The notes below the pieces were generated by a model that was given only the letters and a program-made list of their open reading frames with translations, searched no databases and was not told the DNA's origin. From a virus (Duplodnaviria; Caudoviricetes), in the IMG/VR virus record IMGVR_UViG_3300028640_000004, positions 28,200-92,199 of that record: a stretch of DNA of 64,000 nucleotides; one strand, written 5' to 3'. Numbering within the stretch: position 1 is the first letter of the stretch; every line of letters begins with the position of its first letter. This document shows positions 9,001-51,799 of the stretch, piece after piece. Both the position numbers and the translations under genes were made by a program.

Positions 9001-11204
9001 GTAATGGAGCTGATTACTATGATGTATTCAATGCAATGCCACAATGGTTTAAAGCATTCTATTTTTCAGCACATCCAGATGCTGCAATATATTATCCTTT
9101 AGCTTCAGAAAGACAGAAGAGATTCAATGAGATATACGAGAAGGAGTCTCAGGGGTTTAATATGTCTAAGGAAAGAAAGGCTTTGAATGATTGGTTCTGG
9201 TCTAATTCAGCTCAAGTAAAAGCATGGGAAAGGGATAAGCCTGATAAGATCAAATACTTAAGAATGCAAGAGAAGTTTATGGATTCTGTTGATCCTGATA
9301 AATATTATTCTTCTCTACTTAAGACTGATCCATGGTACTTGAATGAATACTTTAAGAAGAATCCTGATGCTAAAAAGTTTGCATACATCCTAGCTACATT
9401 AGAAGAATATATGGAAGATAGTGATGATGAGAAGTACTCTAAGCTATTAGAAGAGTTTGCTAATAGTGAAGCTGGTAAGTTATACGCAGAGAATCATCCT
9501 ATTGCCGGAGGACATAATAAGCTTGAGTATAGATTGATGTGGAATAACCTGATTAAGAACTCTCAACCAGGAGAGTACTATCAAGGATTCTATAATCAAC
9601 CAGATTGGTTCAAGAGATATTGGTTCAATGGTAACCCAGAGGCTGAAAAGTATTATGGATTCAGGGCTGAACTAGCGAAGAAAGAAGGCGCTGCTTATGA
9701 TGAATACTTATGGGCTGATTATAATAAAGAAGCAAGAGAAGCTTGGTTCAATCATAAACCTGAAGATAGAGACTATTATACTAACTTTAAAAAAACTCTA
9801 AGTACATTCAGGAACACTAACAACATGTTCGGGTATTATGATTTCATACTCAATCCTAAGAATTCTAAGTATCTAGTTAGATGGTCTAATAATGACCCTA
9901 AGAAAATTAAAGCGGCTCAATATTCCAAACAGTACTATGCACTACCTGCTAAGACATGGGAAGATCAAAAGGCTAGAATAGCTTGGATAGATAATAATAA
10001 ATTCTTAAGGGAATGGTGGGATAAAGATAAGACTCCAGAAGAAATAGAGTTATCTAAGAAGGCAGATATCTATAGAAGAATGAAGTATGATATTGAATCA
10101 ATAGGATCTGGTTCTGATTACTATATGAAGTGGAGAGAATTATCTGCTAAGAGAGAGCAATATCTTAAGAACAATCCAGACCTTAATGAATACCTCAATA
10201 AGTCGTATGAAGATAATAACTTAGAGCCGACTAATATCCAGAAGAAGTTAGCTATCTATAATAAGATTAAGGATGATGATAAGAAGCGGGAATATCTTAA
10301 GGAGAACAAGGATCTATCGGATTACTTCTTAGATGGAGTTCCTGAGGGTATTAGACAGATAAGAAAATTACAAGAGAAGTACTTTGCTATAACACAGGAT
10401 AAGTATTCTAATGCAGATGATTACTACGTAGCAAGAAATAGATTCCTTAGTAAGCATAGAGAATTACAGGAGTATTGGGATGCTATGTCACTACCCCCTT
10501 CCGCATTCATACATAAGGAGAAGTTTGATGAATGGCAGAAGAAGCTTAATAAAGTACTGAGGTATTATGACGGTGTTACTTCTGATAGTCTTAATGATTC
10601 TATGAGGTTATCTATCCAGAGAATCAATTCGTACATGGGGGTAGAGAATTCTCCAGAGGCTGAGTGGTTCTGTAACAAAGTGTACAATGCAGCTATGAGT
10701 AAGTGGATAGATTTAATGGGATCTAATAAGTCTATAGGCATGTTCTTCTTTAGACAATTGCCTTCATGGATTAGAGCAAGATACTTTGAAAAGAATCCTA
10801 ACTCTAAGATGTTAAAAGGATACTCATTAGGAGATTGGTTTGCTACTGGTATTTCTAAATACAACAGTAGTAATCCAGGAGTTAAGTGGGCCTTAGAACA
10901 ACAGAAGAAATATGGAGCTGGAGGTATTCCATTCTCTATAAAGAAACAAGTAGAGAGGTATCTTAAGGGAGCTGGTATATGGGAAGACAGGAGCGGGTGG
11001 GATTCTGCTAAGTGGAATAAATGGCAGATTTCTAGAGCCGCATATCTTAATGGATTAAAGGAAAAGGATATAGAGAATAATCCATTGATAAGAAAGGAGT
11101 TATATAGGGCGATCACAGGAACGATAAGGCCTATTAACCCTAAGGTGTATAATAAGAAAGTAAGGTGGGAGCAAGTAGTAGACGTGTCTTTGACACGTCT
11201 ATGA
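3..11204 (+). CDS. Giant polyvalent virion/ejection-type protein (probably 5'-truncated) with DEDDh exonuclease and SLOG-like domains and C-terminal helical repeats
   Basis: 3733-aa ORF running from the window edge. Motifs VLDIETTG / GHNLKEFD / HDSKQD (~1464-1995); SLOG-like pattern ~5790-6175; repeated F..P.W...YF..NP motifs near the C-terminus; lies upstream of tail genes. Confidence 0.7.
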   Translation: MPFWMRGTINDFIDKAGFSAIQKAFLKSEELYSYFGKLYDDINYEPLKRKEWSIKDNEYKTLDWNQYLDEKGEVQLKTSVTKEEVIKNKIKSLIVSPHTATDADWDALKKFDIYPADLKDAINKLFIRIARGDDVSKLIIERNDILSELVGIIDPNTVHEKALRNAGMFSIEKEKLLKHLPNDLKEKVINCSEEYHKLIANREFDEITKNYAVAELISRGYSTEIINEAEKVIHLYDKFIHQMREKALSIKDVITIHISNAIDIRLDDTVKELNLELIDEKVIPRHLQVVIDDKVVMEFEPGTQKTEIIEYLGRLNFNQKKGTVNSEEILDGNDTVDLLRKLYKEKINSKGSSDIASLFEEFRLLSENEKIVGDELLDRFIAYIETYRSLLSSDINNFSELLAISNKLIESQKTNAKNDFRNRVLNKLNNTTKGGAGVFGDIKNIDENLAKDLYRVTELDDIGLEHLTNSLIKKFNNKKYLKVKEHNKILVLDIETTGLDVGKDRMLSIGWSIIDKDGNIIKDSTKSYLIKPDEDTREIVTSGAADAALAKNGLSLDKLDVEGNPDLSTVLKELNNDIKDCEAVMGHNLKEFDLQVLRNEYSKAEMKNNFENKDVLDTLHIINPAKAKGKKSLEELYRAYIRDDYVETHDSKQDVLDLIDLYKRAKETGDLSKSVTSEVSNTIRNNVSKLSLVVRSLDIEGGLPVGNIGHYAATTSKKNIEEIRKVKADNLFTQVQEFLSQDIVSVVKELNRSRKMMSDIFNKQKHYKKRDSLKNFPNSDVSLKDLMYEKTSIIREKKAELDELNEGLKVAKPNDKEALGLKIKQLKEELNKLLDERVESKLFKESDGIVSVPMNYGTTAEEVAKLKELYDQGNRFIVLVPYAFRRFQGVRIPAIDALNTIGAVEEFSMSKKGGKAYDFYVADIKNNLLMPGDYAELDKVLASMAEADIKKLDLLTKAYVLARPSKRTALIKIYRAYFEDLKALRARGVLDTSDNKLKAYNKIIGKLENDAEDFFGVNADEIVGEHRLLQNLEDADEMIMRITDKDNINKDSYALDLKKLAMLQDIEEVFNINELYSLSDILEVKNKTDVHSALTLLNEVVTSNDEAKLEMLHNNLLEFLKPESMEVDQVKDISFKVWYNRHGKKLFKDEVTFEDLNKEKNLKKLDKARDNYAKFRDLNIPKPKEVWFEFMKENNKAFNNQFGSKSIKDPEVNEAYLDYIKGDPSGVGKAYEKSSELTVGAEEVGPQYNEDGIEKGRGQLEEAYLIKRIKEILDTTKETTSLDVLGDIGIKIGHKTSKRISKDGFLGREHKVDLAAVYDNRVNSISELSLVAKKPLEDIQFKSTLEGGQIYNSVYGKDKTDNVIYIVPTIKDKITEVGELKPRQDFKEGDLVIVNETREKLIPEKVDWEDYEFDNEEIKLEVIRTGRMSYTELNDVYYKIPYTDAIKLNTIDKLKERLSNIYNKISSGKKPLPLDFKFIKTGTKAEMDYVNSVITDIKKLYYSDIYVKGKSDKEIQEGLSNISKNVNQKINDWSYMKKDILKKNKKNLLKLTDPNIEKKKEVIDNEINESLSKERNKDDLYNLYKVDKQGNLEHLNKATIKDINSLVKENIDETKSYQVIDSLYDERSKPENIFGDAPVIETIKPPKWDYKSDIITDELPITNELSFLKITDKGNELITIQGRDKIFFKNTVESDRAAGNNRGFGKPKIENTSYRFETVKSPDGSKEVHVEKYIIIDVISETREKELIASINKLKKRPKSNKKEISRLERDLKAELEWRDAIREKVDGLTIPTYEVDSLSDVSINDIDTIKGIRGHFFNREKGVTFSNNKKFNSSFFNRNILTEVESQTIRGINKTYKVIQDTLRAKRTPGYAGIFPKADPAFTDVLGMEDSIKKLTSSILKYEQKVNLEDVLVGLMFEEKNFVKPWKDKEVLVLVNKEQRGITKEFRDAVDELEGTDTVFIFPTGELSNIEIAMQEYIVNKGLKVERRAIEDRPIIKPKEEPIEGTPDVIKQQDEVLARASYVLYMGNPYKDLQSISEVSKVLKDAREAGTIVYSTNKAKKEQLKAIKAFFGDPETTRAAYKMPSLPLRLELKEGMRSVEEATRKIILASMRREFREEWYKWKQAAIDQYREELVNRFRQTGAFSDNKRNLAIAEQIVELKVKELEKQLKGIEDNILKWKGSQPITDKILIKTKKNILQNLYKDIAREKKDISAFNGYLKTGVLPSKKYGLVRDSILLMRKALGIPGHLQKAFITFVLVLRPAWYINNANEDHFKQFIIEKDLKSLAKSYSLTVKLYAKFGKLITKNALKDTANLKKILADDLKKQYKLGLISKEQFKLMTKQLEGDSFDALQILRAETGKEAKDVADLIDKQKDFIVINGVTITRSDIEYMLNSGVMETFTSASEAKLKKNIASDQRSGFGNVIAKASEYQDNLKFFASETERMRRGVVLLRILQKQTQDMVAGAVFDPTTGRSIIKDFFFDYRDLNRAGMLFRKIFPFFSYSYFSVVLYLKLLYKYEGIRAFNAGVALLEVWEANTQELSDEYKDRWAMQLGGKTYLVKIPLSAFEVVKLFQDPVGAIEKSVENPFKSLMGLSFGPFVGTAVEEITGKDYFTPSRIQLRKLGWSHDEIEEEIKKYNKEKKDESLIDKSWNLMSSIVPQASLINDLFFRADVGYEQTGNPLKSKKFRELTKFFGINIMTLTDVDKLRNKIYSMPPSVRNFYLDKIKKEDPELYDEFNRQSRIGFELNLYNEGKSPNEIRAAVMKRDVQTKYYEKEAEKNGSGDEWLRTNSQARDIMEEVWKSSPTNTRKEFKEKERQAKETQRMITEIIEETLPSNITEKNLRKYQALGAEYTEPINKEELIRDVTNKGLDVDQINNLITYKWKDKGVSLIRKDLLEHKKQELEQYRSLSLSEKEALSSEDKSYYTTKAVIDKYLPKEGDSEEEQKKAFEKYREAFNKYFTPEQKERYLASLPEAQRILREANEAYINAWGELLSGEGNGADYYDVFNAMPQWFKAFYFSAHPDAAIYYPLASERQKRFNEIYEKESQGFNMSKERKALNDWFWSNSAQVKAWERDKPDKIKYLRMQEKFMDSVDPDKYYSSLLKTDPWYLNEYFKKNPDAKKFAYILATLEEYMEDSDDEKYSKLLEEFANSEAGKLYAENHPIAGGHNKLEYRLMWNNLIKNSQPGEYYQGFYNQPDWFKRYWFNGNPEAEKYYGFRAELAKKEGAAYDEYLWADYNKEAREAWFNHKPEDRDYYTNFKKTLSTFRNTNNMFGYYDFILNPKNSKYLVRWSNNDPKKIKAAQYSKQYYALPAKTWEDQKARIAWIDNNKFLREWWDKDKTPEEIELSKKADIYRRMKYDIESIGSGSDYYMKWRELSAKREQYLKNNPDLNEYLNKSYEDNNLEPTNIQKKLAIYNKIKDDDKKREYLKENKDLSDYFLDGVPEGIRQIRKLQEKYFAITQDKYSNADDYYVARNRFLSKHRELQEYWDAMSLPPSAFIHKEKFDEWQKKLNKVLRYYDGVTSDSLNDSMRLSIQRINSYMGVENSPEAEWFCNKVYNAAMSKWIDLMGSNKSIGMFFFRQLPSWIRARYFEKNPNSKMLKGYSLGDWFATGISKYNSSNPGVKWALEQQKKYGAGGIPFSIKKQVERYLKGAGIWEDRSGWDSAKWNKWQISRAAYLNGLKEKDIENNPLIRKELYRAITGTIRPINPKVYNKKVRWEQVVDVSLTRL

Positions 11205-46343: not shown

Positions 46344-46589
46344 ATGCATATAGAAGTAGTAGTTAATCTAAGCAAGAGAGTAATGGATCAGCTTATTAGA
46401 GCGATAGACGATTCATGTAAAAGGGTTATAATAGATGAGTGGACTATAGATATAGAGCTTGGAGATACTAGTCCTGAGAATATTTCTGCGTGGATGTCAG
46501 AAGAAAGGAAGCTAGAGTTCAAGAAACGTATGGATGAGCAGTTTCCTGAATATCAGTTCGAAGTTGTAAGTATAAAGTTAAATATATAA
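46344..46589 (+). CDS. Hypothetical protein
   Basis: 81-aa ORF with A-rich leader. Confidence 0.55.
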   Translation: MHIEVVVNLSKRVMDQLIRAIDDSCKRVIIDEWTIDIELGDTSPENISAWMSEERKLEFKKRMDEQFPEYQFEVVSIKLNI

Positions 46590-46613
46590 CTAAATTAATT
46601 AACACAATTAAGT

Positions 46614-47159
46614 ATGATTCTTTCAGACAAATCAATAGAAGTAGCAATCAAAGATAAGAGTATCGTAATAAAACCATTCGACAAGGAGTCTATCGGATCT
46701 GCCTCTTTAGATCTTTCTCTCGATAATGTAGTACTATACTATATAAAAGATAATAAGGTTATTGATACTAAGAATGTAGAGAAGACCTGTACCTTAAGTA
46801 GGATAGAGTTTACTGATGAAGAGCAGATCATACTGCAACCAGGTCAATTCATTCTAGGCGCTACTAATGAAGAGGTTGAGTTACCTAATGATATTGCTGC
46901 TAGGATAGATGGTAGATCTAGCTTAGGAAGATTAGGATTAGCTATTCACTCTACAGCTGGACATATAGACCCAGGATTCAAAGGTAAGATCGTATTAGAA
47001 ATGAGCAATGTAGGAATCAAACCAATCGCTCTATATCCTAAGATGAAAATCTGTCAGTTGGTATTTGAGAAGTTAGATATACCTACTACTAATCCTTATA
47101 ACAAGAAGAAAGGTGCGAAGTATATTAATGTTAAGGAAGTAGAAGGTAGTAAGTTGTAA
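46614..47159 (+). CDS. dcd: dCTP deaminase
   Basis: MILSD, ASLDL, GRSSLGRLGL..H.TAG.IDPGFKG.I.LE. Confidence 0.93.
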   Translation: MILSDKSIEVAIKDKSIVIKPFDKESIGSASLDLSLDNVVLYYIKDNKVIDTKNVEKTCTLSRIEFTDEEQIILQPGQFILGATNEEVELPNDIAARIDGRSSLGRLGLAIHSTAGHIDPGFKGKIVLEMSNVGIKPIALYPKMKICQLVFEKLDIPTTNPYNKKKGAKYINVKEVEGSKL

Positions 47160-47180
47160 GCCACATTAGTGGCATTTCTT

Positions 47181-47344
47181 GGGGGGGAGTGAACTTGCAC
47201 AGAACAAGTCGACATTGGATTTGCTAATAATCTTAAGCTCTTATATAGTAAGCTTCTAGTGTCAGTGAACGTAAGGTAAGCGGATTATACTTAAGATATA
47301 TCCGAAAGAATAACGTTTAGGTGGCTCGAAGCCATACCCTCCCA
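47181..47344 (+). ncRNA. Oversized (164-nt) tRNA-like cloverleaf
   Basis: GGGGGGG/CCCTCCC-A acceptor, T-like arm GTGG-CTCGAAG-CCAT, two long internal arms. Confidence 0.6.
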
Positions 47345-47353
47345 CATTTATAT

Positions 47354-47425
47354 TTCAAGATCGTCTAATCGGCAGGACCAGAGCCTTTGAAGCTCTTAAT
47401 CTTGGTTCGAATCCAAGTCTCGAAA
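47354..47425 (+). tRNA. tRNA-Gln(TTG)
   Basis: AGAGC-CTTTGAA-GCTCT; CTTGG-TTCGAAT-CCAAG; one acceptor mismatch. Confidence 0.88.
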
Positions 47426-47437
47426 CAAAACAAACCT

Positions 47438-47519
47438 GGTGGCTTGCCAGATAAGATAATGGACCTGACTGTAAATCAGACGTCTTCGGACTTAGTAGGA
47501 GCGTTACCTACAGCCACCA
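47438..47519 (+). tRNA. tRNA-Tyr(GTA) with atypical T-loop
   Basis: GGTGGCT/AGCCACC-A; CTGTAAA loop; TTCG variable arm; T-loop AGCGTTA. Confidence 0.85.
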
Positions 47520-47700
47520 CATCAAGATAAGACCTCTTCTATATAGGTATATATTACTATAAAGATAACTATTACTACAAAGAATAAATCTGCTATTTTC
47601 ATATGATTTAAGTATGACATACTGAGCTTATCTGCCAATTAAGTTATCCACACGAAGACATCTTCGTAAGAAAGTGTTGTTCAAAGAAGACATCTCGCAG

Positions 47701-47820
47701 TTGACGACTGATATAGTTGTGAATTATAATTAAGACAAAAGCAGGGTTATATTTACTATGCGTCCGTCTACAACGCATTAACCTTCTCGTTCGGGGGTGA
47801 TATAAGATCTGCTTTTTTTG
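47701..47820 (+). ncRNA. Promoter-driven three-way-junction small RNA ending in a terminator
   Basis: TTGACG-18-TATAAT; AAAAGCAG...CTGC-TTTTTTT enclosing two hairpins. Confidence 0.55.
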
Positions 47821-47824
47821 TTAG

Positions 47825-47971
47825 GGGTACTTGACTTTTATCCTATTAGGTGCTATATAATAGATAAGATATTTAGCCAATGGACATAACTAAATATTTT
47901 AACAAAGAACGGTTCGTATAGTATCTTCGGATACAACCTGTCCAGGTGGCTAATATACGGGCCGTTTTTTG
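47825..47971 (+). promoter_or_regulatory. C4/CI-like antisense-attenuator leader with a 13-aa uORF (47880-47921)
   Basis: GGGTACTTGACT promoter; TTAGCC-AA-TGGACA complementary to loop TGTCCA and bulge GGCTAA of the downstream terminator structure. Confidence 0.65.
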
Positions 47972-48006
47972 TATAAATAATAATAAATAATAATAAATAA
48001 TAAACA

Positions 48007-48744
48007 ATGGAAACACCTAATTATTTTGCGATCATACCAGCAAATGTAAGGTATGATAAAGAGTTATCGTCATCAGCAAAATTATTATATGCGGAGATAA
48101 CTAGTCTTACAAATAAAGAAGGATATTGTTGGGCATCTAATAGTTACTTCGCTGAACTATATGGCACAGATGAAAGAACTGTTAGCAGATGGATATCATC
48201 ACTAGTAGATAAAGGGTATGTATCTTCTGAAGTAGAAGGATATAATAAAAGAAAAATATACATTTTAGATAGAGGGGGTATGACAAAAATGTCAGGGGGG
48301 GGTGACAAAAATGTCATAGAGGATAGACAAAAATGTCTACATAATAGTAAAGATAATAATAAAAATAATATACTAGAGCCTTCGCCTGCGGCTCCGGCTT
48401 GTGTGGAACCAGAATATATTCCATTAGAAGAAGAAATAAAAAGTCTTAGGAAAAAGGAAGTAAAGACGGATCCTAATATTACGATTAAGAAAGATATCAT
48501 TGGTTTCTTTATAAGGAAAAGTAAAGAGTATCATGCCGGGTATTGTCCTGTCATTCAGTTACCTGTTGCTCTTCGGTTAGTTAATGACTGCCTCAAGTTC
48601 AGTAACCCTGACGAGATTAAGGCCTGGATAGAATGGTATCTTCAAGGAGATCTGTATGAAGTACTAGGTTCCGATATTAAGACCTGCTTATGTACAGCTA
48701 GTTATAATAAGTATAAGGATTACAAAAGGAAGTATGGATCTTAA
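48007..48744 (+). CDS. Phage replication initiator (N-terminal wHTH, lambda O/DnaD-like)
   Basis: PNYFAIIPANVRYDKEL...AKLLYAEI..L....GYCWASN.YFAELY. Confidence 0.85.
   Translation: METPNYFAIIPANVRYDKELSSSAKLLYAEITSLTNKEGYCWASNSYFAELYGTDERTVSRWISSLVDKGYVSSEVEGYNKRKIYILDRGGMTKMSGGGDKNVIEDRQKCLHNSKDNNKNNILEPSPAAPACVEPEYIPLEEEIKSLRKKEVKTDPNITIKKDIIGFFIRKSKEYHAGYCPVIQLPVALRLVNDCLKFSNPDEIKAWIEWYLQGDLYEVLGSDIKTCLCTASYNKYKDYKRKYGS
48282..48337 (+). repeat. Iteron-like repeats within the initiator gene (putative ori)
   Basis: GACAAAAATGTC x3 at 22-bp spacing, followed by an AT-rich tract. Confidence 0.75.
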
Positions 48745-49024
48745 CAAGATATCAATGGATAAATTAATTGGATGCATAATAGAGTTTAGATTCAATAGAA
48801 CCTCTTTATATGATATTACTTCTATAAACATACGACCTCTTTCTACTTACTATGAAGGATGTAATTATACAGCATTAGTAGTAGCTGCTGATTTATAAAA
48901 TTGTGTGTTCGTAATATTAGAAGGAGTAGGTGGAGCGGCAGCTTATCATAGGGTATATCGTGATGATATAATATCTATAAGAGCGCCACTTACATCAACA
49001 GAACTATTAGTAGAAGAATTATAA
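48734..49024 (+). pseudogene. 96-codon gene with an in-frame TAA at 48896-48898
   Basis: Frame continues to TELLVEEL, similar to the C-termini of the neighbouring paralogues. Confidence 0.5.
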
Positions 49025-49542: not shown

Positions 49543-49889
49543 GCGATGAAATGGATAAGTTAAAACTTCAGATTGATCATATGTTTCTGAAGAAGAGTGA
49601 GGCTACCTTATTTAACTCTAATAGTGTCTTAGACCGGATGGTTAAAGAACAATCAAAACATAAGCCAGCTCCCAATTATATGGTTGGTACAGTAGTAACA
49701 TATAACGTAAATGCTAAGTTGTATCAAGGATTAATAGTTGGAGCGTCGTATGAAAACGATGGTCCGTTTAGCGAACAAGCAACTTGGGTCTATGAAATAA
49801 AGAGGAATAAACGAATAGATGCAGTTCCGGAAAGATACATAATAGATATAATAGTAACTAATATGCAAGACTTAATAAAGAGATTATGA
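49539..49889 (+). CDS. Hypothetical SH3-like protein
   Basis: P.YMVGTVVTY....GLIVGAS; ends MQDLIKRL. Confidence 0.55.
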   Translation: MSDEMDKLKLQIDHMFLKKSEATLFNSNSVLDRMVKEQSKHKPAPNYMVGTVVTYNVNAKLYQGLIVGASYENDGPFSEQATWVYEIKRNKRIDAVPERYIIDIIVTNMQDLIKRL

Positions 49890-51799
49890 GTGACAATTAT
49901 TTAGAAGAGTCCGGTCTAATACTGTCAGCTAAAGAGGCTCTGGAAAGAGAAAGGGAATTAGCCTCTTATGATGGTGAGTATAGAGTAGTATCATCTACTG
50001 AACTACAATCTGATCTTAATAAGAAAGGTAAGATTGTAGTTAATGGATACGATTGCGGATTTCCTTATTTAGGAAGTAAGATAGGACAGTTCGAACCAGG
50101 AAACTTAATAACAGTAACAGGATACTCCGGTAATGGTAAGTGTCATGGAAAAGGGACAGAGATACTTATGTATGATGGCTCTATAAAGAAAGTAGAAGAT
50201 ATTGTTATTGGGGATATGGTTATGGGTGATGACTCTACCCCAAGAAAGGTATTATCTTTATGCAGAGGAGTAGATCAGCTTTATAAAGTAAATGGAGTAA
50301 AAGGTAATTCGTATATAGTTAACAGTGAGCATATTCTTAGTTTATATAACTCTTCTGGTACATCTTATGGCGGTCATAAATATATAGATATATCCGTAAA
50401 AGACTTTCTTAATAAACCAAAAGGATATCAAGATATGCATAAGGGATATAGAGCTACTGTAGAATTTAAGGAAAGAGAGGTTCCATTAGATCCATATCTA
50501 TTAGGGTTATGGTTAGGAGATGGTACTTGTTCTAAGCCAGAGATAACAACAAGAAAGAAAGATCTAATAGAATATATATATAATACCGCTCTAAACTTAA
50601 ATATAAGTACCTATAAAGAAGATACATATTCCTTAGTAAGAAAGAGAATTAATAAACCAAAAGATAAGAGGTGTAAGACCTGTTTCGATTCATCAAAGTC
50701 TTTTAAGGAGTATCTTAATGAATTAAACGTCTTAAATAATAAGCATATTCCAGATATATATAAGATAAACTCTAGAGAAAATAGGTTAAAGATATTAGCT
50801 GGACTTATAGATACAGGTGGTTATATTAATAATAATTGTTACGAAATAGTTTCTGCTTATAAATCACTAGCTAAAGATATAGTTTTTATAGCAAGATCTT
50901 TAGGATTTGCAGTAAACATCTCTATAAAGAAAGTAAAAGGATATACTAAAGATTATTATAGGATTAGTATATCTGGTGATTTATCTATACTACCTGTTTT
51001 AATTAAGAAGATACCTAAAAGAAGGCAAATAAAAAACGTCTTACATTATGGTATAACTATAGAAAACTTAGGTAAAGGAAACTATTATGGCTTTGAATTA
51101 GATGGAAACCATAGATACTTATTAGATGATTTTACAGTAACACACAACTCGAGTTTACTACATGCCCTTACGAGAAATATGGCTAAAGTCCCGATTCTAT
51201 GGTTCTCATACGAGAATACACCAGCTCAATTCTTTAGAAAATTCGAAGATGTAGAGCTCCCACTATTTTATCTACCTCTAGCGAATAAGCCATATGACTT
51301 AGAGTGGTTCAAAGAAAGGGTAACAGAAGCTACCTTAAAGTATGGAGTAAAGATTATTATGATAGATCACCTCCACTATCTATTAGATTTATTCACTAGT
51401 AAGAATACATCTTTAGATATAGGTAATATGTTAAGGGCTCTTAAAGTATTAGCTGTAGAAAAAGAACTAGTTATTTTCTTAGTCGCCCATACCAAGCAGC
51501 CTAAAGCTTCAGAAGAACCAGACATGGGATCTCTGCGTGATAGTTCTTTCATAGTACAAGAGTCAGATAAAGTATTAGCAGTACATAGAGTAAGGAGTTC
51601 GGTAAATAGCCGCTCTAAAGTAATCATCTTAAAGGATAGAGATCATGGCGATGTATGGAATCAATACAGTGAATTCGTTATAGAGAACAGACTATTAAAA
51701 GAATTAGCTCCATGGAAACAAGGGGAGAATATTAAAGAAGCAATTAATAGTAGGGCGGAAGGCGAAGCTAATCTAGCCGCTCTAAAAGAAATACATTAA
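49886..51799 (+). CDS. DnaB-like replicative helicase containing an intein
   Basis: GYSGNGK|S Walker A, IMIDHLH, LVAH, LRDSS.I.QESD. Confidence 0.9.
   Translation: MSDNYLEESGLILSAKEALERERELASYDGEYRVVSSTELQSDLNKKGKIVVNGYDCGFPYLGSKIGQFEPGNLITVTGYSGNGKCHGKGTEILMYDGSIKKVEDIVIGDMVMGDDSTPRKVLSLCRGVDQLYKVNGVKGNSYIVNSEHILSLYNSSGTSYGGHKYIDISVKDFLNKPKGYQDMHKGYRATVEFKEREVPLDPYLLGLWLGDGTCSKPEITTRKKDLIEYIYNTALNLNISTYKEDTYSLVRKRINKPKDKRCKTCFDSSKSFKEYLNELNVLNNKHIPDIYKINSRENRLKILAGLIDTGGYINNNCYEIVSAYKSLAKDIVFIARSLGFAVNISIKKVKGYTKDYYRISISGDLSILPVLIKKIPKRRQIKNVLHYGITIENLGKGNYYGFELDGNHRYLLDDFTVTHNSSLLHALTRNMAKVPILWFSYENTPAQFFRKFEDVELPLFYLPLANKPYDLEWFKERVTEATLKYGVKIIMIDHLHYLLDLFTSKNTSLDIGNMLRALKVLAVEKELVIFLVAHTKQPKASEEPDMGSLRDSSFIVQESDKVLAVHRVRSSVNSRSKVIILKDRDHGDVWNQYSEFVIENRLLKELAPWKQGENIKEAINSRAEGEANLAALKEIH
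50141..51148 (+). mobile_element. Intein (336 aa) with LAGLIDADG domain in the helicase P-loop
   Basis: Starts CHGKGT, ends VTHN|S; LLGLWLGDG and LAGLIDTGG blocks. Confidence 0.92.

Follow-up and report, generated by a model that had tools for sequence, protein, structure and literature searches.

A C4/CI-like leader with complementary box pairs and a predicted terminator ahead of a phage replication-initiator operon

What stands between the promoter of a phage replication initiator and the gene itself, and by what means could it control the gene? The question is raised by a locus in the final 64 kb (hereafter, the window, i.e., the whole stretch of DNA that was analyzed) of a 92,199-bp IMG/VR phage record, which has a G+C content of 33% and an estimated completeness of 69%. 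A first-pass annotation had read this locus as an antisense attenuator resembling the C4 RNA of phages P1 and P7 and the CI RNA of P4, acting on the initiator operon through a leader peptide. We find that the leader is C4/CI-like by design, that it is not a detectable member of the C4 family, and that it needs no leader peptide.

The replication-initiator gene (48007..48744, + strand), whose product has an N-terminal HTH_36 domain by Pfam match, opens an operon that extends past small genes to a DnaB-type helicase with an intein (49886-51799; the intein region carries Hint and LAGLIDADG homing endonuclease domains). Upstream of the leader are groEL, small genes, a dCTP deaminase gene (dcd), tRNA-Gln, and a second unit composed of a promoter, a small RNA, and a terminator. 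The regulatory DNA upstream of the initiator promoter region contains a perfect DnaA-box-like nonamer (47644-52, + strand) followed directly by a 14-bp palindrome (47653-66, + strand); nonamer and palindrome lie beside the orthologous promoter in all relatives, their order being reversed in the distant clade. Within the initiator ORF, three exact 12-bp repeats spaced at 22 bp (48282-48337) separate the N- and C-terminal domains, an arrangement that looks like a putative iteron-type origin inside the initiator gene, as in lambda O. Of 81 long ORFs, only 3 have a Shine-Dalgarno core. At 11190 and 43554 of the window, as well as 12,878 and 6,234 bases ahead of its first position, consensus TTGACA/TATAAT promoters are placed such that only 7 to 14 nt separate the −10 box from a following ATG; such distances imply mRNAs that would be leaderless or have very short leaders.

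The unit directly upstream of the leader (47701-47820) has a TTGACG/TATAAT promoter with an 18-nt spacer, an RNA of ~85 nt folding into a three-way junction, and a T7 tract. Its first inner hairpin is identical in one syntenic contig (L056, from L056:511), and the unit is missing from six others (L057-L061 and L237). No target was found for its 9-nt loop, and the pairing predicted between this small RNA (47733-47822) and the leader is not above that of shuffled sequences.

All of the elements that the first-pass annotation had listed in the leader were found on the + strand, to which the coordinates that follow refer. The predicted leader RNA is ~105 nt long, promoter-proximal, and terminator-ended, and it lies ahead of the initiator operon. 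Its sigma-70-type promoter, recognized from sequence, consists of TTGACT (47831-36), a 17-nt spacer, and TATATA (47854-59) preceded by TG (47851-52, in TGcTATATA), with a predicted transcription start at ~47866. This site was skipped by our simple promoter scan, which requires the final T of the −10 hexamer, but it is kept in L056-L061 and L237. The transcript would begin with an AU-rich 5′ hairpin (HP1, 47866..47900, with arms 47866-76 and 47890-900), identified by both fold prediction and inverted-repeat search, whose loop and upper stem carry two target boxes: a 5′ box of 7 nt (TTAGCCA, 47873..47879) and a 3′ box of 6 nt (TGGACA, 47881..47886).

Downstream of HP1 is a three-way-junction domain (47908..47966), delineated by fold energies and by covariation in its closing stem. 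It comprises the closing stem of 13 bp (47908-20 with 47954-66), hairpin 1 with a UUCG loop (47921-34), a small hairpin 2 (47937-46) that exposes the anti-box TGTCCA (47939-44), and a single-stranded junction strand that forms the second anti-box (TGGCTAA, 47947-53). Together with a T6 tract (47965-70), the closing stem constitutes a predicted intrinsic terminator: as in other intrinsic terminators, a G+C-rich stem is followed by a U tract on the transcribed strand, and the U-G pairs within the stem fit the + strand. A scan for terminator-like structures flagged the T6 tract, but with a weaker, alternative hairpin of 8 pairs (47944-67) rather than with the closing stem. The remaining distance to the initiator start is occupied by an AT-only spacer with 10-nt repeats (47971..48006, + strand), in which the promoter scan listed no consensus promoter; a TATAAA at 47972-77 has no −35 partner. 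The spacers of the other variants likewise show no consensus promoter, although this AT-rich stretch may contain a weak one.

The two boxes are exactly complementary to the two anti-boxes, as the first-pass annotation had pointed out, and this complementarity goes far beyond chance. The 5′ box pairs with the junction strand over 7 bp and the 3′ box with the loop of hairpin 2 over 6 bp. The window contains this split pattern once per strand, against an expectation of 0.02, and the remainder of the 92-kb genome does not contain it at all. Pairing of the 5′ region with the interior of the terminator has a predicted energy of −18.5 kcal/mol, a value reached by 0 to 3 of 2,000 shuffles. Across both strands of the 92-kb genome, the best partner of the box is the anti-box of the same leader; with the anti-box as the query, many G-U-rich sites outscore the true box, such that energy scans alone are uninformative. 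No second exact copy of the target exists downstream or elsewhere in the genome, a relaxed pattern search of the genome allowing G-U pairs returned 11 matches (the number expected by chance), and pairing of the anti-boxes with gene start regions is not consistently above that of shuffles.

The three-way junction has a predicted energy of −19.7 kcal/mol, or −22.6 kcal/mol when the second hairpin has 4 bp, and a rod-like fold that buries both anti-boxes has −22.7 kcal/mol. The junction thus lies 0.1 to 3 kcal/mol above the minimum and is one of several near-isoenergetic folds; that it is the unique minimum was rejected, the rod-like fold being slightly lower in energy. A classical antiterminator was likewise rejected: in the leaders of the near clade that have the three-way junction and in L244, a nested fold with the long-range helix alone is 11 to 16 kcal/mol worse than the combination of hairpin and terminator, and in the simple leaders of L238 and L239 it is 3 to 9 kcal/mol worse. 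In L244, moreover, the terminator stem that holds the anti-box in its loop is a perfect helix of 13 bp, which pairing could not open. Given that the leader is not a classical antiterminator, the pairing must be intermolecular unless both helices form together in a pseudoknot. Between the end of the anti-box and the terminator's 3′ strand there are 0 to 1 nt in each of the seven intact variants, so that a single uninterrupted 3′ strand runs through the long-range helix and the terminator stem.

Relatives of the locus were obtained as syntenic metagenome contigs, by exact-protein look-ups that followed a homologue search; no close relatives were found among cultured phages or in IMG/VR. Exact-pattern scans for further members in IMG/VR, a metagenome sample, and genome contigs gave nothing or chance matches in AT-rich sequence, and a protein-based scan of IMG/VR returned only loci that have the generic HTH_36 domain in common. 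Four of the contigs (L246-L249) proved to be unrelated contexts, and only 7 to 8 independent sequences underlie the comparison. Leaders of the window and its near relatives were aligned with MAFFT; this alignment fails to keep the boxes in register, and covariation in them was therefore tabulated locus by locus through duplex prediction.

The leader is common to five near relatives, and complementarity is kept with different letters in all but one of them. In L058-L061, the 5′ box shows one exchange of an A-U for a G-C pair plus a U-G pair; in L057, which has lost hairpin 1, compensatory exchanges affect both boxes; and in L237, both boxes (7 and 8 nt) are wholly different, yet complementary to their anti-boxes. 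The exception is L056, in which most of the complementarity is lost and the rest of the leader is kept. Two more distant pairs have simpler leaders: L238 and L239 display CCCC in the loop of the 5′ hairpin and have a plain terminator with a GGGG(G) loop, and L244 and L245 have an 8-nt box whose complement is in the loop of the perfect 13-bp terminator. Duplex energies were reached by 0 to 14 of 2,000 shuffles for the window, L058-L061, L057, L237, and L244/L245 and by 72 to 192 of 2,000 for L238/L239. When boxes and anti-boxes from different loci were matched in all combinations, the cognate pairs were the strongest or near-strongest. In L238, a CCCC-containing stretch within the initiator-coding sequence (L238:1986-2000), with an equivalent in L239, shows complementarity to the loop of the terminator (energies of −14.8 and −11.2 kcal/mol, reached by 18 and 26 of 1,000 shuffles; p about 0.02), and this weak signal may mark a downstream second target in the simple leaders.

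Other parts of the leader are conserved in ways that differ from element to element. Of the 12 pairs of the closing stem that were compared, 6 show changes in both partners, with 96.6% of cells paired, and a tract of five to six T's follows the stem in every leader-bearing relative. The nine lower pairs of HP1 are invariant in five sequences and are thus uninformative on covariation. All four elements of the three-way junction are present, in the same order, in the window, L058, L237, and L056; the C4-like shape is not group-wide, given that L057 is without hairpin 1 and that L238, L239, and L244 have plain hairpins. In two relatives, a small ORF that overlaps the initiator start is present between the terminator and the initiator (L056:708-871 and L057:2809-3011; 57 aa in L057).

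The reading we favor, in which our confidence is evenly balanced, is that the leader is a transcription attenuator controlled by RNA-RNA pairing, of the same kind as P1 C4 and P4 CI. The transcript from the initiator promoter would first form the 5′ hairpin displaying the two boxes and next the three-way-junction RNA, whose closing stem and U tract would act as an intrinsic terminator; most transcripts would be expected to stop at this terminator, yielding a small RNA. Read-through into the initiator would then be set by pairing between boxes and anti-boxes, either in the nascent chain or by the accumulated small RNA, with the boxes serving as the specificity determinant that diverges quickly between related phages. 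Promoter use, termination, action in trans, and the sign of the effect are all what we infer from the sequence.

The same helix could instead be purely structural, i.e., a pseudoknot contact that shapes a constitutive terminator or stabilizes the RNA, with no switching and no action in trans; we consider this unlikely, although it fares best among the alternatives. A pseudoknot that keeps the terminator would be energetically competitive (approximately −18 kcal/mol for the stem and hairpin 1, and approximately −15 kcal/mol net for the duplex), the terminator stem is intact in every variant, and no second target was found in the genome. A structural contact, however, should not outpace the other helices of its RNA, and this is what the boxes do: among the five close relatives in the MAFFT alignment, identity is 46% in the boxes and 37% in the anti-boxes but 65 to 73% in the closing stem, 92% in the linker, and 100% in the hairpin arms. 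The flanking dcd genes of L057, L059, and L237 are 95 to 98% identical in DNA, and yet these three contigs have three different box sets. Also at odds with a structural requirement are the retention of the rest of the leader in L056, where the pairing is gone, and the existence of relatives that do without the entire leader. By analogy, rapid change of the boxes with pairing retained would be the pattern of immunity or incompatibility determinants, which argues against a merely structural contact.

In four relatives (L240-L243), which have no leader, the same DnaA-box-like nonamer is present and the same promoter is ~35 nt from the initiator ATG. The promoter at 47831 is hence the initiator's own, into which leader and terminator have been interposed, and the proposed wiring of the module to the initiator operon holds: it sits between the promoter of the initiator and the gene. 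In L244 and L238, the distance from terminator to ATG is only ~20 nt, leaving no room for another promoter. This arrangement bears on the possibility, which we regard as decidedly improbable, of a stand-alone small RNA acting in trans on a target that belongs to the host or to the 31% of the genome not in the record, the boxes then being a decoy or auto-inhibitor in cis like a1/b1 of P1. Its own promoter and terminator, its C4-like architecture, the presence of a second promoter-small RNA-terminator unit directly upstream, and a genome that is just 69% complete would all suit such an RNA. Against it, in L240-L243 the orthologous promoter drives the initiator with no leader interposed, the best partner of the box in the genome is the anti-box, and the G-U search yielded a chance number of matches.

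The leader-peptide mechanism is made unlikely by comparison among relatives. The window contains a 13-codon uORF (47880..47921, + strand) whose ATG is within the 3′ box and whose TAG falls where the 5′ arm of the closing stem ends, and the first-pass annotation had proposed that its translation decides termination and that antisense pairing blocks this translation. The uORF is open in L058-L061 as well, and small-ORF translation is used in this kind of control in both P1 and P4 (P1 annotation; PMC5320573). Nonetheless, the uORF is present in just two of seven leader variants (the window and the L058-L061 type): the ATG is missing from L056, L057 combines ATC with a frameshift, L237 has an ORF of 3 codons, and L238, L239, and L244 have none. 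Blocking the translation of a uORF that most variants lack cannot be the conserved mechanism, and the mark of ribosome-mediated attenuators, a conserved leader ORF over alternative structures, is not found here. The segment from 47878 to 47900 repeats that from 48005 to 48027 (23 nt, 83% identity; 0 of 500 shuffles), and the encoded peptides are MDITKYF in the uORF and METPNYF in the initiator. A significant repeat of the box region at the start of the initiator was seen in the window alone, and this copy pairs weakly with the anti-box. The uORF thus appears to be a relic duplicate of the codons with which the initiator begins, and the repeat suggests that the 5′ hairpin may have arisen by duplication of the 5′ end of the initiator gene. 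We view ribosome-dependent attenuation as very improbable.

The initiator proteins themselves are mosaic: in the window, L057, L058, L059, and L237, the C-terminal ~120 aa are 75 to 96% identical, and the N-terminal DNA-binding domains are unrelated. Such swapping of DNA-binding domains between close relatives, and similar duplex energies computed for the opposite strand (asymmetry between strands does not decide the matter for the box helix), would be compatible with the box pairs being inverted repeats bound at the DNA level by a protein such as the initiator and changing with its specificity, but we judge this the least probable explanation of all because the spacing between half-boxes differs between the copies in every variant (1 versus 2 to 3 nt, tolerable for RNA and not for a DNA site), because the boxes contain G-U pairs and the closing stem U-G pairs, because the anti-box is always in the terminator loop or junction and flush with the 3′ strand, and because L058 and L059 have the leader in common but not the initiator N-domain.

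A further proposal can be advanced tentatively, at a probability we would place clearly below even: that the leader is a sense-encoded, self-targeting antisense module that arose outside the proteobacterial C4 family, provides strain-specific incompatibility or dosage control of the initiator in a large phage, and is one of a wider class of leaders that has escaped cataloguing, located ahead of phage replication genes and built on pairing of a 5′ box to a terminator loop. Should the RNA act in trans, it would amount to RNA-based control of copy number or superinfection in a phage not known as temperate, and the relatives would supply RNA-RNA attenuator pairs that are naturally orthogonal to one another. 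The temperate or plasmid-like state suggested by the first-pass annotation is unsupported, as no integrase, resolvase, or ParB domain (PF00589, PF00239, and PF02195) was found in the 92 kb, which represent ~69% of a complete genome. Because covariance-model searches miss modules of this sort, they could be much commoner than databases suggest.

The likeness to C4 and CI, as first proposed, stands with respect to architecture and pairing topology and fails with respect to a covariance-model match and to the downstream a2/b2 site. Rfam 15 contains both C4 (RF01695) and c4-a1b1 (RF03163), in clan CL00128; neither model had a match at an E value of ≤10 in positions 46500-49000 of the window, the 92-kb genome, or seven relatives, although the same models detected P1 (68.8 bits for C4 and 51 bits for c4-a1b1) and P4 CI (74.9 bits) as positive controls. 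A permissive Rfam search of the window, genome, and relatives recovered only tRNA and tmRNA.

Element by element, the correspondence is nevertheless close. The order in the Rfam C4 consensus is that of the window, namely, closing stem, UUCG hairpin (5 bp in C4), loop box, and 7-nt junction strand. The second hairpin of C4 has a large loop; hairpin 2 of the window is shorter, with only 2 to 4 bp. The topology of pairing in P1 C4 is also identical (5′ target box with junction strand, and 3′ target box with loop), and the boxes are of similar size (7 and 6 nt in the window, and 7 and 8 nt in P1). As in P1 and P7, the RNA is encoded on the sense strand, directly after the promoter of its own operon; as in c4-a1b1, an upstream target is in the hairpin loop of the same transcript; and as in C4, the letters of the boxes differ between related phages and the pairing is kept. 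Dissimilarities are equally specific. The closing stem of the window has 12 to 13 bp, versus 17 in C4, and it doubles as the predicted terminator; whereas P1 C4 has a CCACC tail and undergoes RNase P processing, the 3′ end in the window is a U tract; and the window has no a2/b2 site over a ribosome-binding site, as P1 does. The gene downstream is a replication initiator rather than icd/ant. The known C4 family is proteobacterial, and the window phage has a G+C content of 33% and does not make use of Shine-Dalgarno sequences. Finally, the window has simpler relatives with one box and a plain hairpin, and this makes convergence at least as likely as remote homology.

In terms of function, the closest analogue is P4 CI, a C4-family RNA (seqB, with targets seqA and seqC) that, by analogy, would correspond to the predicted RNA of the window. 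CI is in the leader of an operon that includes the replication gene alpha, as the window leader likewise precedes a replication gene, and an a1b1/isrK-type hairpin-plus-terminator element is upstream of it. As reportedly described by Sabbattini et al. in 1995 and Forti et al. in 1999, pairing of CI with flanking sites leads to premature termination of the replication-operon transcript. The two systems differ in that CI of P4 has a target on each side, upstream as well as downstream, whereas no downstream target was found in the window phage; in that termination in P4 needs a block of the translation of nested small genes and the CI RNA is excised by processing; and in that P4 is temperate or plasmid-like, whereas the window phage has no detected lysogeny genes in 92 kb.

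A second comparison is with the plasmids pT181, pIP501, and pAMbeta1, in which an intrinsic terminator is located in the rep leader, read-through is set by contact between RNA loops, and the specificity loops define incompatibility. The window leader resembles these systems in combining RNA-RNA pairing with a predicted terminator ahead of an initiator gene. The regulators of the plasmids, however, are countertranscripts from the opposite strand, whereas regulator and target in the window are on the same strand, and the plasmid leaders alternate between mutually exclusive preemptor and terminator folds, for which no counterpart was found in the window leader. To our knowledge, P1, P7, P4, and their relatives in proteobacteria are the only known bearers of C4/CI-type RNA immunity, which in them protects the lysogenic state; in the window, this design precedes the initiator of an AT-rich phage without detected lysogeny genes and is fused to a predicted terminator.
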